Below, piece after piece: positions 1 through 5,171 of a DNA stretch of 64,000 nucleotides. The DNA lies in NCBI GenBank assembly GCA_019752595.1, contig JAIELV010000001.1, positions 184,486 through 248,485 of the forward strand, read 5' to 3'. The DNA is from Patescibacteria group bacterium (GTDB lineage Bacteria; Patescibacteriota; Minisyncoccia; Phycocordibacterales; Phycocordibacteraceae). Position numbers and translations under genes: made by a program. Within the stretch, counting starts at the first letter, position 1; each line of letters begins with the position of its first letter. Under the pieces are notes generated by a model that did not search any database, was not told the DNA's origin, and saw only the letters and a list, made by a program, of their open reading frames with translations.

Positions 1-306
1 GAGACTGGTGAGAGTTACAGAGGAAGTGTGTACGGTCGTATGAGTTGGGACAAGCCGGCTCCTACGATGACTACGCAGTGTACAGGGTTAGGAAATGGAA
101 GATACGGCCATCCAGTTCAAGACAGAGCCATATCTCTCAGAGAAGCAGCATTTTTCCAAACCTTTGGAAAAGACTATAAATTTGTTGCGCCTGACCAGAA
201 GTTAATTGTGAAACAGATCTCTCGTTTTATTGGGAACGCGGTTCCCGTAAGAGGAGGAGAAGTGATCGCAGAGAGTATCCGAAGGCACCTCAACCTTGTG
301 CCCTAA
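1..306 (+). CDS. DNA (cytosine-5)-methyltransferase, C-terminal fragment (5' end lies outside the window)
   Basis: Frame open from the window edge. Motif RAISLREAAFFQTFGKDYKF...IGNAVPV matches C5-MTase motifs IX-X (R.LT.RE.ARLQ.FPD.F.F ... GNSV.VP). Confidence 0.7.
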   Translation, partial: ETGESYRGSVYGRMSWDKPAPTMTTQCTGLGNGRYGHPVQDRAISLREAAFFQTFGKDYKFVAPDQKLIVKQISRFIGNAVPVRGGEVIAESIRRHLNLVP

Positions 307-2201
307 GTTGATACAAGTGAGTTTAGTTTCGTTTTATTTGCAGATTCAGATTGTGGCCTGTAGCCCAGTTTTTCGGATACAAAAATCATCCTTTCAACAA
401 ACTTGTCAAACTCCAGCGGGTCCATTCTGATATCTCCACTCGTATCTAAATAAGTTGATTGCCATAACTTTGCTACGTCTAGAGGGGCTTCAGGTCTGTG
501 GCCTTTTACATTGAAGATTAAATGAATGCTTTGTGCTACCCACCCAGCCCCAACTTCTGCAACTGGATTCCATTCCTTTGCCATTCTCTCGCTCGTAACA
601 TATAGGACGAGTATTTTTTCATTGGAAATGCTATCGATAAAGAACGAACGAAGATAGTCAAAAAGGCTTTCGTCTATCGGGAGACGCGATTCTCTAGATC
701 CACTGGTATAAAGGATTACGTCTTCAGGTATGTTATTAAAAACGAGCATTTGAAAAATTAAGTCGGCTAAAGGCTTATCAAGTCCGGAATGACTGATTAA
801 TACTTTCTTCTTGTTGGAATCTACCGTGTTTTTTAATTTCAGAATCTTGCGCGACTCATCTAGTTTCCTAACAACACGTAGGGTCATTTCTTCTTTGGAA
901 AGGTTCTCATTTTTCAAGACCTCACGGACAATTTTAGTGGCAGTTAAATTACTGAAATTATCCACGGTTTCTCGCAACTTCTGCTCTTGTCTTTTTTGTC
1001 GTTCGAGTTTCTCTTTATCCTTTTGTTCGTTTTTAAAACCAACCCACTTGTTTCTCAATTCAATTAGCTCTGGCAATAATTTGTCTCTTATTATTTCTGT
1101 AGCCTTGATATACCTAGGATCGTCAGATTTATAACCCTGTCTGTTGCTGAGTGCCATATCAGGTAGCTCCGTTTCTTCAAAAAGATCAATGTGCAGCTGA
1201 CCCACAACATACACTTCCTGGAGTTTATTTTTACCCGCAATAGGGAGAATATTATATTCACCCATCTTTCCATTTGATAAAAGCGAAATAAAATTGTCAG
1301 GAAAGTCGCCTTTATGTTTTTTCCTATCTTTCGTAGTCTTATAGATACCAAGCCACCCTTCTATCTTGAGGTCATAATCTCGCGTTTCTAGATTTATTGT
1401 CTTCAACGAGAGGGGAATAGAGATAGGGTCCGCTTGCTTCAAGAGATCTTTCAAAACTCGATATTTTTTTTGCGGAAGTTCAGGATCAAAGTACTTTGAA
1501 AGACTTTTATATTTATGTCCAAAGGTCATTAGGCCGCCAAGTTGTTTTACTATCTCGGTATCGAAACTTTTAATTGTTACAGCATCATTGCTCGGTGTCT
1601 CTATGTGAATTTGGAAGTCTTTGCTTATAAGGGGAAATATTTTCACCACGTTAGCTTTAATAACTTGAGGATCTGAAGGAAAGTCGTATTCGGGGTCTCG
1701 CATCACAATTGACGTACCATGTGTTGATATTTTATCGAACTTAATGTCTTCCTGATTGATAGGTATAAGACGTTTACTAGAAGGAACCTTACGAGGAAGA
1801 ATAAATCCCGACCTCTGCTCGTTTTTGATAGTTTTCACAAGCACCTCTTTTGATACTGCTAAAGCAGCCAATTTACCGATACCTTTTCTTCCAAGCCGAC
1901 GGCGGGTTTTACTCGAACCCTTAACGTACACGTCGCCACTGCTGGTCCTCGTTTCTTCAGCGACCCTTAAGTAGTGATCTGTATCACCGTCGTCATAAGA
2001 CATTCCGAAACCATCATCTTCCACTATTATTTCATTGCTTCTTTTAATAATGTAAATGTTTTTTGCATTAGCATCATAAGCATTCGCAATAAGTTCGGCG
2101 AGTACGTAATATATATTGGTGTATAAACTTGGGCCAAGTAGTTCAAGAATCCCTGGCTCAATGCTAATCGGGTATATTCGATCTTCTGATTTAGGAGTCA
2201 C
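303..2201 (-). CDS. GHKL-superfamily ATPase (MORC/HATPase_c_3-like) with an uncharacterised C-terminal domain
   Basis: Bergerat-fold motifs: N-box ELIANAYDA, G1 DDGFGM, G2 GRKGIGKLAA. 632 aa. Overlaps the MTase fragment by 4 nt. The C-terminal ~150 aa (VLISHSGLDKPLADL...ILVLYVTSERMAKEW) is of unknown, possibly TIR-like, nature. Confidence 0.6.
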   Translation of the reverse strand: MTPKSEDRIYPISIEPGILELLGPSLYTNIYYVLAELIANAYDANAKNIYIIKRSNEIIVEDDGFGMSYDDGDTDHYLRVAEETRTSSGDVYVKGSSKTRRRLGRKGIGKLAALAVSKEVLVKTIKNEQRSGFILPRKVPSSKRLIPINQEDIKFDKISTHGTSIVMRDPEYDFPSDPQVIKANVVKIFPLISKDFQIHIETPSNDAVTIKSFDTEIVKQLGGLMTFGHKYKSLSKYFDPELPQKKYRVLKDLLKQADPISIPLSLKTINLETRDYDLKIEGWLGIYKTTKDRKKHKGDFPDNFISLLSNGKMGEYNILPIAGKNKLQEVYVVGQLHIDLFEETELPDMALSNRQGYKSDDPRYIKATEIIRDKLLPELIELRNKWVGFKNEQKDKEKLERQKRQEQKLRETVDNFSNLTATKIVREVLKNENLSKEEMTLRVVRKLDESRKILKLKNTVDSNKKKVLISHSGLDKPLADLIFQMLVFNNIPEDVILYTSGSRESRLPIDESLFDYLRSFFIDSISNEKILVLYVTSERMAKEWNPVAEVGAGWVAQSIHLIFNVKGHRPEAPLDVAKLWQSTYLDTSGDIRMDPLEFDKFVERMIFVSEKLGYRPQSESANKTKLNSLVST

Positions 2202-3262: not shown

Positions 3263-3502
3263 TCACGCTTTCTTTTCCTCCGTCACGCACAACCTACAGG
3301 TCTTTTTATGTTCGAGCAACAGATACACCGCTGATAATGCTACGAGTACGTACATAATTTTAGACATTGAGGCGTCCATACCGCCAAACAGATTACCCAG
3401 CTCCCAGCCTGTTACTGCAAGTAAGCCCCAATTCAGGGCTCCTATAACGACTAAAACGAACGCTACTGTGTGTACGTATTTCATATACGCATAGGATATC
3501 AA
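3263..3502 (-). CDS. DUF378-family small membrane protein
   Basis: 79 aa with two TM segments. GALNWGLLAVTGWELGNLFGG...YVLVALSAVY matches the DUF378 pattern. Confidence 0.55.
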   Translation of the reverse strand: MISYAYMKYVHTVAFVLVVIGALNWGLLAVTGWELGNLFGGMDASMSKIMYVLVALSAVYLLLEHKKTCRLCVTEEKKA

Positions 3503-3800: not shown

Positions 3801-5171
3801 CTAGAGATATTTCAACGGATCAAGGTACGCATCCGTTGGCGCCACAGGAATTGTGGCGTTTGCGCAATTTGTTTTTGCTTTCACGTCGCCGTAACGCACA
3901 ACTTTAACCGCATCCGATACATAGAGCGTAAAGTGCAGGTGCGGGCCCGTAGCGTAGCCTGTTTTACCTGAATAGCCGATTAAACCTCCGCGTGATACTG
4001 CCTCCCCCTTTGTAACGCTAATTACCGAAAGGTGGGCGTAGAGCGTGGAGAGGCCGTTTGTATGCTTTACCAGAACCCATTTACCGTACGAATAGCAGCC
4101 TTTATACGCGTCTGTGTTCCCTGTCGCAGTTACTTCACCAGGGAGGGCAGAAACTATTTTAGTGCCCGTTGGAGTGCCGAAATCGATGCCGTTGTGGTCT
4201 TTTCCGTTATATGCGCCTGATTGTGCGAACGAAGTGTTGCCATAATACTGAGTAATGCAGTAGTTGTTTTTAAACGTACTGTAGCGGTCTTTGCACTTCG
4301 CCATAAACGCAGAGTCGACAGGGAAACTCAACACGCCACTCCCCGCTTTCGGAATTGATGTAGGGTCAAGGTTAAATTGAAGCGCAGCTTCGTAATCACC
4401 TAACTGTTTTTCAAACTCCAGTTTCGCAGCCTGTTTTTCGGCAAGAAGAGTTTGGAACTCTGATTCTTTGTTTTTTGTATCTGCTAGAAGGTTTGCCTGT
4501 TCTTTGCGGTTTTGATCCAATACTAATTTTTGATTCGCCAGTTCGCGTTTAAGGTTTTTCAGTTGATTTTGTTTCTTTTGGGTTTCGGTTAAATCGAGCG
4601 TGAGTTCTTGTTTCGTATCAAGAAGGTTATCAATCTGCGCGCGAAGTTTTTCTTGTACGATTCGCTCGCGGTCTGCAGTAGTCCACGCGTTCTCTAAACC
4701 GTTTGCCGTCAGCAAGTGTTCAACAAGTGTTGTTTCGCCAATTTTATAAATATTTTGAAATGCAAGATTAACCGCTTCCTTCCCAGCGTTGATACTTTTT
4801 TCTTTTTGACTGATTTCACCACCAAGTTCTTTAATCTCGAGGCTTGCTTCCGTAATCCTGTTTTCAGTAACAGAAATATCCGTACCGATTTTTTTGCGAG
4901 AAACGTCAATGCGCTTCACCTCGCTCTCTAATGTTGATTTTGCCGAGCCGATAACCACCAACTGGCGCTCATATTCGGCAATTTCTTTTTCAAGCTGAGC
5001 TATTTTTGCGTTTTGAGTGGCAATCCTTGCTGCTATTTCTTCAGCTGTTTCGGCTAGAGTATTTGTAGGTAATGTAAAAAGTGCACCCAGAACGAGGAGT
5101 GCAACTATACAAAGAGGCGCAATCCTATGAAAGCGAATCGATAGCACGGTTGATGCGCTTTTCAGTTTCAT
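3801..5171 (-). CDS. M23-family peptidoglycan metalloendopeptidase with N-terminal signal/TM and a long coiled coil (EnvC-like)
   Basis: C-terminal GIDFG...PHLHF (HxH) M23 motif. N-terminal hydrophobic segment, then a Gln/Glu/Lys-rich coiled coil. Confidence 0.8.
   Translation of the reverse strand: MKLKSASTVLSIRFHRIAPLCIVALLVLGALFTLPTNTLAETAEEIAARIATQNAKIAQLEKEIAEYERQLVVIGSAKSTLESEVKRIDVSRKKIGTDISVTENRITEASLEIKELGGEISQKEKSINAGKEAVNLAFQNIYKIGETTLVEHLLTANGLENAWTTADRERIVQEKLRAQIDNLLDTKQELTLDLTETQKKQNQLKNLKRELANQKLVLDQNRKEQANLLADTKNKESEFQTLLAEKQAAKLEFEKQLGDYEAALQFNLDPTSIPKAGSGVLSFPVDSAFMAKCKDRYSTFKNNYCITQYYGNTSFAQSGAYNGKDHNGIDFGTPTGTKIVSALPGEVTATGNTDAYKGCYSYGKWVLVKHTNGLSTLYAHLSVISVTKGEAVSRGGLIGYSGKTGYATGPHLHFTLYVSDAVKVVRYGDVKAKTNCANATIPVAPTDAYLDPLKYL

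Follow-up and report, generated by a model that had tools for sequence, protein, structure and literature searches.

At the left edge of a 64,000-nucleotide (nt) stretch of DNA from a Patescibacteria group bacterium (assembly GCA_019752595.1, contig JAIELV010000001.1, positions 184,486 to 248,485 of the forward strand; hereafter the window), two genes meet tail to tail. The first is a C5-cytosine DNA methyltransferase, of which the window holds the 3' end (1..306, + strand): frame 1 runs without a stop from nt 1 until the TAA at 304-306, and these last 101 codons of the gene encode the final part of the target-recognition region together with motifs IX-X, the remainder lying off the window. 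The second, on the - strand (303..2201), is an open reading frame (ORF) with a GTG start at 2201 and a TAG at 305-303, whose 632-residue product consists of a GHKL ATPase domain, an S5-like transducer domain, a helical linker and a TIR domain. We refer to this paraMORC4-like protein as GHKL-TIR, and propose that it is the 'restriction' or effector subunit of a mobile restriction-modification (R-M)-like cassette. The two convergent stop codons share the 4-nt sequence CTAA (303..306, both strands), in which the methylase TAA overlaps the GHKL-TIR TAG, as can be read directly from the sequence.

The gene pair

An earlier note on this DNA, made from the sequence alone, had called a partial Dcm-type methyltransferase (motifs IX-X) overlapping by 4 nt a convergent ORF of 632 residues, and both its coordinates and its gene calls hold. 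The 101 methylase residues match PF00145 in Pfam at profile positions 243-323 of 324 (E 3.3e-10) and, among PADLOC models, MTase_II (8e-25), DruM (2e-22) and DrmMII (1.5e-19); in the fragment, motifs IX-X are kept, as is each of the 36 columns without variation in an alignment of eight methylase sequences. Compared with full-length methylases encoded beside GHKL-TIR genes elsewhere, it shows 56-65% identity. The 632-residue protein is identical to an NCBI entry from a Patescibacteria metagenome-assembled genome, 'ATP-binding protein [Patescibacteria group bacterium]', 'ATP-binding protein' being all that the NCBI name says of it, and PADLOC has no dedicated model for the GHKL-TIR family. As judged from its relatives, this ORF is not a product of chance, with more than 2,359 homologues and full-length counterparts of ~630 residues at ~50% identity. 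Tight 3'-3' junctions like that in the window also occur in other relatives with convergent genes (loci L008, L062, L064, L071 and L083).

A two-domain ATPase module and its linker

The only Pfam match in GHKL-TIR is HATPase_c_3 (PF13589) at residues 32-149 (E 8.7e-18), which, together with invariant motifs and fold comparisons, defines a GHKL (Bergerat-fold) ATPase domain at residues ~10-190 (1632..2174, - strand). The three stretches in which a Bergerat fold had previously been recognised are all there, ELIANAYDA at residues 36-44, DDGFGM at 62-67 and GRKGIGKLAA at 104-113. Residue conservation, here and below, was counted over 195 relatives of the protein: E36, N40, D62, G64, G66, G104, K106, G107, G109 and K110 are invariant (195/195). 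These residues belong to motifs I (E36/N40), II (D62-G64-G66) and III (G104-K110), while motif IV corresponds to T163, a position occupied by T or S across the 195 relatives.

An AlphaFold2 model of the full protein (32 homologues as input, mean predicted local distance difference test score, or pLDDT, of 78) aligns in Foldseek over 390-470 columns, with moderate template modelling (TM) scores, to two-domain GHKL ATPases. The matches of the ATPase module include Hsp90/GRP94, MutL LN40 (1nhh, 1b63), MORC3 (5ix2), MORC2 (9cdj), GyrB 43K and topoisomerase VI-B. Since these matches are to two-domain ATPase folds, residues ~10-360 are best read as a Bergerat domain followed by a transducer (S5-like) domain; in the model, the fold of the N-terminal ~400 residues is the combination of GHKL and transducer domains also seen in MutL, MORC and Hsp90. 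The transducer, or middle, domain (residues ~195-360; 1122..1619, - strand), which is delimited by Foldseek and by homology to the HgiDII family (see below), carries the family signature DFPDNF ... VVGQLH.DLFEE..LPDMALSNRQGYK. It also contains an SNRQ..K loop in which R354 is found in 195/195 relatives and S352, N353, Q355 and K358 each in 194/195. This loop would be the sensor of the ATP gamma-phosphate that is typical of GHKL transducer domains, and the low confidence of the AlphaFold2 monomer at residues 351-357 is as expected for a switch loop. The module is followed by a long helical linker, probably a coiled-coil (residues 362-451; 849..1118, - strand), with helices at 362-430 and 436-451 (AlphaFold2/DSSP) and a charged, heptad-like and poorly conserved sequence.

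The protein had been described in the earlier note as a MORC-like GHKL ATPase. The likeness in fold to MutL, MORC and Hsp90 is real, but the MORC-specific S5 motif GhXhhpXXRhl is absent from the 632 residues (regular-expression search); the protein belongs to the wider paraMORC radiation and, most likely, to paraMORC4.

A C-terminal TIR domain of SpbK type

The C-terminal ~150 residues of GHKL-TIR, for which a TIR-like or other effector domain had been suggested, are assigned to TIR by three lines of evidence. The PADLOC spbK model matches them with E 3.2e-17. By sequence, they match SpbK in the Protein Data Bank (PDB 9phb), both with the single protein (phmmer, E 4.6e-5) and with a family profile (E 1.7e-15). 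Finally, when the last ~170 residues were modelled separately (pLDDT 83), the top Foldseek match was the SpbK TIR (9phb_A; E 8.4e-9, TM 0.69/0.77, root-mean-square deviation 3.1 A, 23% identity), the only one below E 1e-3, with the TIRs of SPARTA, MyD88 and SARM1 coming next. On sequence and model, we identify residues 464-632 (306..812, - strand) as a TIR domain of the SpbK type. Profile searches also dispose of a housekeeping, MutL-type dimerisation domain, which had been raised as the alternative for this region: MutL models match just ~40 residues at GHKL motif I, with E of at least 1e-3. Searches of the 632-residue protein with Pfam, NCBIfam, PADLOC and fold comparison found no nuclease domain, only GHKL, transducer and TIR.

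SpbK is an experimentally demonstrated hydrolase of nicotinamide adenine dinucleotide (NAD+), or NADase, the activity of which requires self-association of its TIR domain; its E192 is among the modelled NAD+-site residues and has been changed to Ala, and G194 and W197 have likewise been mutated (PMC12847820). The counterpart of E549 in the window protein is residue E216 in the numbering of the SpbK PDB chain (native E192), and the counterparts of G551 and W554 are G194 and W197; E549, G551 and W554 are invariant in 195/195 relatives. E549 (codon 555..557, - strand) is, by this alignment, the predicted catalytic Glu of the TIR domain. Nearer the start of the domain, the window protein reads S-H471-S-G-L-D475-K; D475 is present in 193/195 relatives and the residue after position 471 is T, S or A, which gives the family motif [HQ]-[TSA]-x-x-D-K.

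Kinship with BbrUII/HgiDII restriction enzymes

The NCBIfam model of BbrUII/HgiDII restriction enzymes (NF050001) matches residues 11-432 with E 2.4e-57, covering only positions 2-402 of a profile of 659, and with 195 bits against a cut-off of 550 the window protein is not a member of that family. A genuine member, encoded on a Rhizobium plasmid, scores 779 bits over positions 1-659 and lies in an operon of the order Vsr-methylase-enzyme. In BLASTP, the window protein is 28% identical to this enzyme over residues 5-399 (E 7e-40), SNRQ loop included, with no similarity beyond residue 399. The methylase that accompanies this enzyme shares 56% identity with the fragment in the window and is conserved through the stretch separating motifs VIII and IX. 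Sensor and methylase of the two cassettes are thus homologous, and it is in the effector domain that the cassettes differ. They share a homologous GHKL plus transducer module, a homologous 5-methylcytosine (m5C) methylase and the same operon logic, often with Vsr, whereas the C-terminal ~250 residues are unrelated, HgiDII having a non-TIR domain where the window protein has TIR.

From these sequence comparisons, it appears that the nuclease end of an HgiDII-type system has been replaced by TIR, with the proviso that the HgiDII domain is only possibly a nuclease. The C-terminus of R.HgiDII was left without assignment by Orlowski & Bujnicki 2008. We found for the HgiDII-type C-terminus a weak, sub-threshold match to Shedu/DUF4263 in Pfam (PF14082, SduA_C; E 5.4e-4) and no match among PDB sequences, and its identification as a Shedu nuclease stays a hint. 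Set against Type II R-M systems in general, the window pair has the adjacent cognate methyltransferase, but no recognisable endonuclease domain was found in its putative restriction subunit.

The restriction enzyme HgiDII recognises and cuts GTCGAC. By homology to the partner methylases of BbrUII/HgiDII, the window methylase probably has a target with a TCGA core. The DrmMII methylase of a Serratia class 1 DISARM system, which methylates MTCGAK (bioRxiv 10.1101/2021.12.28.474362), may belong to the same methylase family. In pooled 6-mers, CTCGAG was the most depleted (0.56) and GTCGAC was at 0.71; many GC-rich palindromes were similarly depleted, so that depletion of 6-mers is not discriminating.

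A mobile pair in bacteria and archaea

Beyond the homologues mentioned above, a further 553 matches were found in 185,579 species genomes, and the family is present in roughly 0.3% of species genomes, including Listeria, Bacteroides and Segatella (formerly Prevotella). Full-length relatives at ~50% identity occur in Patescibacteria, ANME-1 and Altiarchaeales archaea, Actinomycetota, Bacillota, Bacteroidota, Pseudomonadota and others, the best locus among GTDB species representatives being 52% identical to the window protein. The closest relative of all is on a 2.35-kb contig, with a GHKL-TIR 81% identical and a convergent methylase 76% identical to those of the window, again with overlapping 3' ends. 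So wide and patchy a distribution across bacteria and archaea points, at the level of sequence, to a cassette that is horizontally mobile between phyla and even between domains of life.

The neighbourhoods of 80 related loci, with flanks of up to ~10 kb, reveal how tightly the two genes are linked. An m5C methylase from the family of the window fragment (50-68% identity to the 101 residues there, full-length relatives having ~350-370 residues) lies directly adjacent to the GHKL-TIR gene in 53/80 loci, 47 times upstream and co-directional, usually overlapping, four times convergent as in the window and twice downstream. It is at most 3 kb away in five further loci and, among the 20 loci embedded in DISARM operons (see below), stands first in the operon in 14, which brings the total to 72/80. 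Five loci lack a full methylase where the contig or the 10-kb flank ends; L009 and L031 keep a terminal fragment, and L049, L072 and L080 are cut. In the DISARM loci L041, L051 and L056, there is no methylase within the ~10 kb upstream, where it is either farther off or absent. With the reservation of these three, methylase and GHKL-TIR form an obligate pair across the 80 related loci.

This pairing, kept across related loci, supports an R-M or defence-type module, as had been proposed, and shows that the methylase is not an orphan. The sole other recurrent neighbour is a Vsr gene near the methylase, in 39/80 loci; none is present in the window, the region to the left of nt 1 being outside that search. 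Most loci (57/80) are stand-alone two-gene cassettes with no conserved third gene except the frequent Vsr, so that the separate nuclease partner for which the earlier note had left room need not be sought.

Some loci deserve separate mention. In Bacteroidales, two or three tandem m5C methyltransferase genes stand beside the GHKL-TIR gene (L037, L050, L068 and L070), and an ORF of ~600 residues with a Vsr-like segment is found in L037, L040, L050 and L068. A cassette in Listeria monocytogenes FDAARGOS_57 (L081, 4916-7911; NZ_CP030101, about 1,893,257-1,896,252) comprises a full-length methylase and a GHKL-TIR of 46% identity, lying between genes for thiamine-phosphate synthase and a family 1 glycosidase. 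NZ_CP030101 is a 2.9-Mb chromosome, entered in PLSDB as a 'plasmid' and almost unannotated there.

Insertion in class 1 DISARM operons

A quarter of the sampled loci (20/80) lie within class 1 DISARM operons, as defined by PADLOC models. The gene order is DrmMII-(Vsr)-DrmD-DrmMI-[GHKL-TIR]-DrmA-DrmB(-DrmC), with the methylase ~8 kb upstream of GHKL-TIR, which is co-directional with drmA and drmB. These operons are class 1 DISARM with an additional DrmMII (Ofir 2018; Serratia sp. SCBI, bioRxiv 10.1101/2021.12.28.474362), GHKL-TIR being placed between drmMI and either drmA or drmD, and their first gene encodes an m5C methylase of DrmMII type, from the family to which the window methylase belongs; in L013, the best PADLOC match of the methylase is a DrmMII model, at full length. 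The Serratia DISARM has been published as a system of six genes, without mention of a GHKL-TIR or ATPase gene (bioRxiv 10.1101/2021.12.28.474362). DISARM-embedded copies fall mainly into two clades, with four scattered loci in addition, which implies that the association arose only a few times. Unlike these, the window holds a stand-alone cassette: tblastn searches with DrmA, DrmB, DrmD and DrmMI found no DISARM gene in its 64 kb, the DNA left of nt 1 lying outside the search, and the window methylase sits where drmA sits in DISARM loci.

Two further features of the DISARM loci deserve mention. In L015 (11872-13074) and L016 (11875-13074), an AspBHI-like methyl-directed restriction enzyme (PF18062 plus Mrr_cat; PADLOC mREase_II, E 6e-153) is encoded between GHKL-TIR and drmA of a class 1 DISARM operon, that is, a modification-dependent enzyme inside a modification-protected system. 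In a subset of these loci, the interval from drmD to drmA holds a conserved ORF of 541-571 residues, for which Pfam and PADLOC gave no match (L031, 15009-16634; L041 and L042, 15009-16724; L080, 9526-11223).

Context and composition of the window

The cassette stands out from its surroundings. Only nt 1-2300 are compositionally foreign, with a GC content of 40.1% (46.6% in the rest of the window) and an 8-fold higher density of CCGG; three of the 13 CCGG sites in the window (nt 55, 784 and 2305) are in the cassette or at its edge (binomial P 0.01). This composition is consistent with recent horizontal acquisition. The earlier note had seen an accessory island reaching to ~3.8 kb. Small ORFs and a well-folding intergenic stretch do occupy that region, one of the ORFs encoding a DUF378 protein, but the foreign composition ends at about nt 2300, and the visible mobile unit consists in essence of the gene pair.

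Upstream of the GHKL-TIR gene, 360 nt of non-coding DNA (2205-2565, - strand) fold into consecutive hairpins (minimum free energy -122.8 kcal/mol, z -4.1 against shuffled sequences). These hairpins may be terminators, one after another, of the small gene upstream, or may represent an RNA that lacks annotation. Rfam had no match at E <= 0.01 between the cassette and its neighbours, no family at gathering threshold and no transfer RNA or transfer-messenger RNA were found in the whole 64 kb, and promoter and terminator scans gave nothing above chance. Beyond GHKL-TIR there are three small ORFs, among them that for the DUF378 small membrane protein (3263-3502, - strand), then a gene for a coiled-coil M23 peptidase (3801-5171, - strand), which overlaps the 3' end of gltX by about 47 nt.

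In the window as a whole, CCGG is strongly avoided, with 13 sites observed and 141.5 expected (maximal-order Markov model, z -10.8), and GATC occurs 97 times against 197 expected, which suggests strong pressure on this genome from CCGG- and GATC-specific restriction by other systems. We considered CCGG as the target site of the cassette and rejected it: the hosts of the 80 related loci show no CCGG depletion, which makes that depletion a feature of this host and not the mark of the cassette's own site.

Relation to paraMORC4 and other known systems

The family is less new than the earlier note implied. Iyer, Abhiman & Aravind 2008 (Biol Direct 3:8; PMC2292703) described in silico the paraMORC families, GHKL plus S5 proteins encoded in R-M operons, one of which, paraMORC4, ends in a TIR domain that has, between its first strand and first helix, the highly conserved motif Hx[ST]xD. 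The window protein is most likely a paraMORC4, matched by architecture and not by the sequence of a named member. Common to both are (i) an intact N-terminal GHKL domain, an S5/transducer domain and, at the C-terminus, a TIR whose beta1-alpha1 loop holds a conserved polar motif, its exact form differing (see below), (ii) a place in R-M-type operons, where paraMORC4 accompanies cytosine methylases, Vsr and superfamily 2 (SF2) helicases and the present family has the DISARM SF2 helicases in its 20/80 loci, (iii) a patchy, laterally transferred distribution and (iv) occurrence in Listeria and Marinobacter, which are in the paraMORC4 species list (PMC2292703) and are genera in which we find the present family. 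The published motif Hx[ST]xD differs from the [HQ]-[TSA]-x-x-D-K found here; the spacing of H and D fits, and the [ST] position is shifted. The 2008 paper, which predates the discovery of TIR NADases, does not have the relationship with SpbK, the homology to HgiDII cassettes or the insertion in DISARM. What is new is the assignment to the SpbK-type NADases, the apparent swap of nuclease for TIR relative to HgiDII, the near-constant company of one methylase family over the 80 loci and the recurrent insertion in class 1 DISARM. Full-text literature searches found no experimental study of a GHKL-TIR protein.

Three other systems are instructive. SpbK itself, from ICEBs1 of Bacillus subtilis (PDB 9phb), is the closest solved TIR domain, and the equivalents of E192, G194 and W197 are kept. 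Its own N-terminal four-helix bundle, however, docks on a phage portal protein, so that it senses a protein and not DNA, and it has neither an ATPase nor a methylase partner. GHKL-Shedu (paraMORC3; VcSduA of V. cholerae) unites, like GHKL-TIR, a GHKL ATPase, a middle clamp and a C-terminal effector in one polypeptide, and mutation of either ATPase or effector abolishes defence by VcSduA (PMC12137116). It differs in being a single-gene system with a PD-(D/E)xK nuclease as effector and no obligate methylase. SPARTA (TIR-APAZ-Argonaute) provides a conceptual parallel, in which invader nucleic acid leads to TIR oligomerisation and NAD+ depletion, but recognition is by guide RNA and Argonaute instead of methylation status and a GHKL clamp, and there is no sequence relationship with the window protein outside the TIR fold.

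How the cassette might work

An interpretation has to accommodate the architecture of the protein with its intact catalytic residues, the linkage to a methylase, the homology to a restriction family, the embedding in DISARM and the mobility of the pair. We infer that the cassette responds to DNA, that methylation of this DNA prevents the response and that the response consists in NAD+ cleavage. In such a scheme (i) the m5C methyltransferase would mark host DNA at its target site, (ii) its 632-residue partner, as an ATP-driven clamp of the MutL/MORC type, would engage unmethylated phage or plasmid DNA, (iii) ATP-dependent dimerisation or oligomerisation would let the TIR domains assemble head to tail, as TIR NADases require, and (iv) NAD+ would be hydrolysed and the infected cell would stop supporting the invader, a restriction of the abortive-infection type. 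That the pair is a mobile two-gene, R-M-like defence cassette, in which ATP-driven and methylation-gated sensing of unmethylated DNA leads to NAD+ hydrolysis, has in our estimate about an even chance. A broader proposal, which we hold a little more tentatively and rate at slightly below even, is that the family represents a form of R-M with a TIR NADase in place of the HgiDII-type nuclease, unmethylated DNA leading to NAD+ depletion, and that it is also an unrecognised accessory effector of DrmMII-carrying class 1 DISARM.

Several points weigh against an NAD+-depleting cassette of this kind. The NADase activity of GHKL-TIR is predicted solely from homology to SpbK, and the authors who defined paraMORC4 suggested for its TIR a role as nuclease or allosteric site (PMC2292703). 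Position 471, the His of the reported Hx[ST]xD, is H in 127/195 relatives and Gln in the other 68/195. Nucleoside 2'-deoxyribosyltransferases are among the weaker fold matches of the TIR domain, which makes other N-glycosidic chemistry possible. In other restriction or defence proteins with a fused GHKL domain, GHKL-Shedu among them, the effector is a nuclease. As for recognition, no DNA-recognition domain was identified in GHKL-TIR, and the target of the cassette could not be read from site avoidance, whether in the window or in pooled 6-mers. Finally, in this genome, the methylase gene is cut by the window edge and only its 3' end is visible.

Some of these points feed directly into the most serious of the alternatives, namely that GHKL-TIR is a true restriction enzyme whose TIR attacks unmethylated DNA, as nuclease or glycosylase, while the ATPase clamps and loops the DNA, the protection being direct and non-abortive. 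The TIR does occupy the C-terminal place of the HgiDII domain that is possibly a nuclease (the SduA_C hint), a nuclease role was what Iyer et al. 2008 proposed (PMC2292703), deoxyribosyltransferase folds do appear among the weaker structural matches, and strict pairing with a site-specific methylase is a hallmark of restriction that targets DNA. Yet SpbK, a demonstrated NADase, is by far the closest homologue, and the equivalent of its E192 is invariant; no metal-binding nuclease motif is evident in the TIR domain, and we came across no publication in which a bacterial TIR cuts DNA site-specifically, all of which makes a true restriction enzyme unlikely in our view, if far from negligible. Less probable still is that the TIR makes a signalling nucleotide – a cyclic ADP-ribose (cADPR) isomer or an ADP-ribose conjugate – for an effector encoded elsewhere, or modulates DrmABC in the DISARM copies. 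Many bacterial TIRs do generate signals, as in Thoeris, SpbK makes N1-cADPR, and the quarter of loci integrated in DISARM are co-directional with drmA and drmB; but the self-contained nature of the 57 two-gene cassettes, which have no conserved third gene but Vsr, speaks against signalling, and transfer between phyla and domains argues against dependence on an unlinked host effector.

A role outside defence would make GHKL-TIR a MutL-like accessory of Dcm/Vsr very-short-patch repair, the repair of T:G mismatches that arise by deamination of m5C. In E. coli, Vsr is stimulated by MutL, whose fold the N-terminal module resembles, and Vsr stands by the methylase in 39 loci. Vsr is missing, however, from half of the loci and from the visible window, repair of this kind has no use for a TIR whose catalytic Glu is invariant, and the ATPase module is closest to a restriction-enzyme family; with DISARM embedding and horizontal mobility besides, we regard such a housekeeping function as very improbable. 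We think it just as hard to credit that the window pair is an inactive remnant, recently acquired and now decaying in a reduced Patescibacteria genome. Its composition is indeed foreign and its methylase is visible only in part, but the 632-residue ORF is full length, with all catalytic and family-invariant residues intact, and the methylase end has lost neither its motifs nor any of its invariant columns.

Significance

On its own, the window yields a modest result, one further copy of a family that was predicted in 2008. If methylation-gated NAD+ hydrolysis is indeed what this family does, the implications would be broader, that is, (i) methylation-based discrimination of self from non-self and abortive infection by NAD+ depletion, the two principal strategies of prokaryotic immunity, would be joined in one small cassette, (ii) nature would have swapped effectors, from nuclease to TIR, on a conserved chassis of sensor and methylase and (iii) the extra m5C methylase of some class 1 DISARM operons would acquire a role. 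A validated function would lead to better annotation of the many genomes in which these genes are found, and would contribute to explaining barriers to the transfer of DNA into these organisms.

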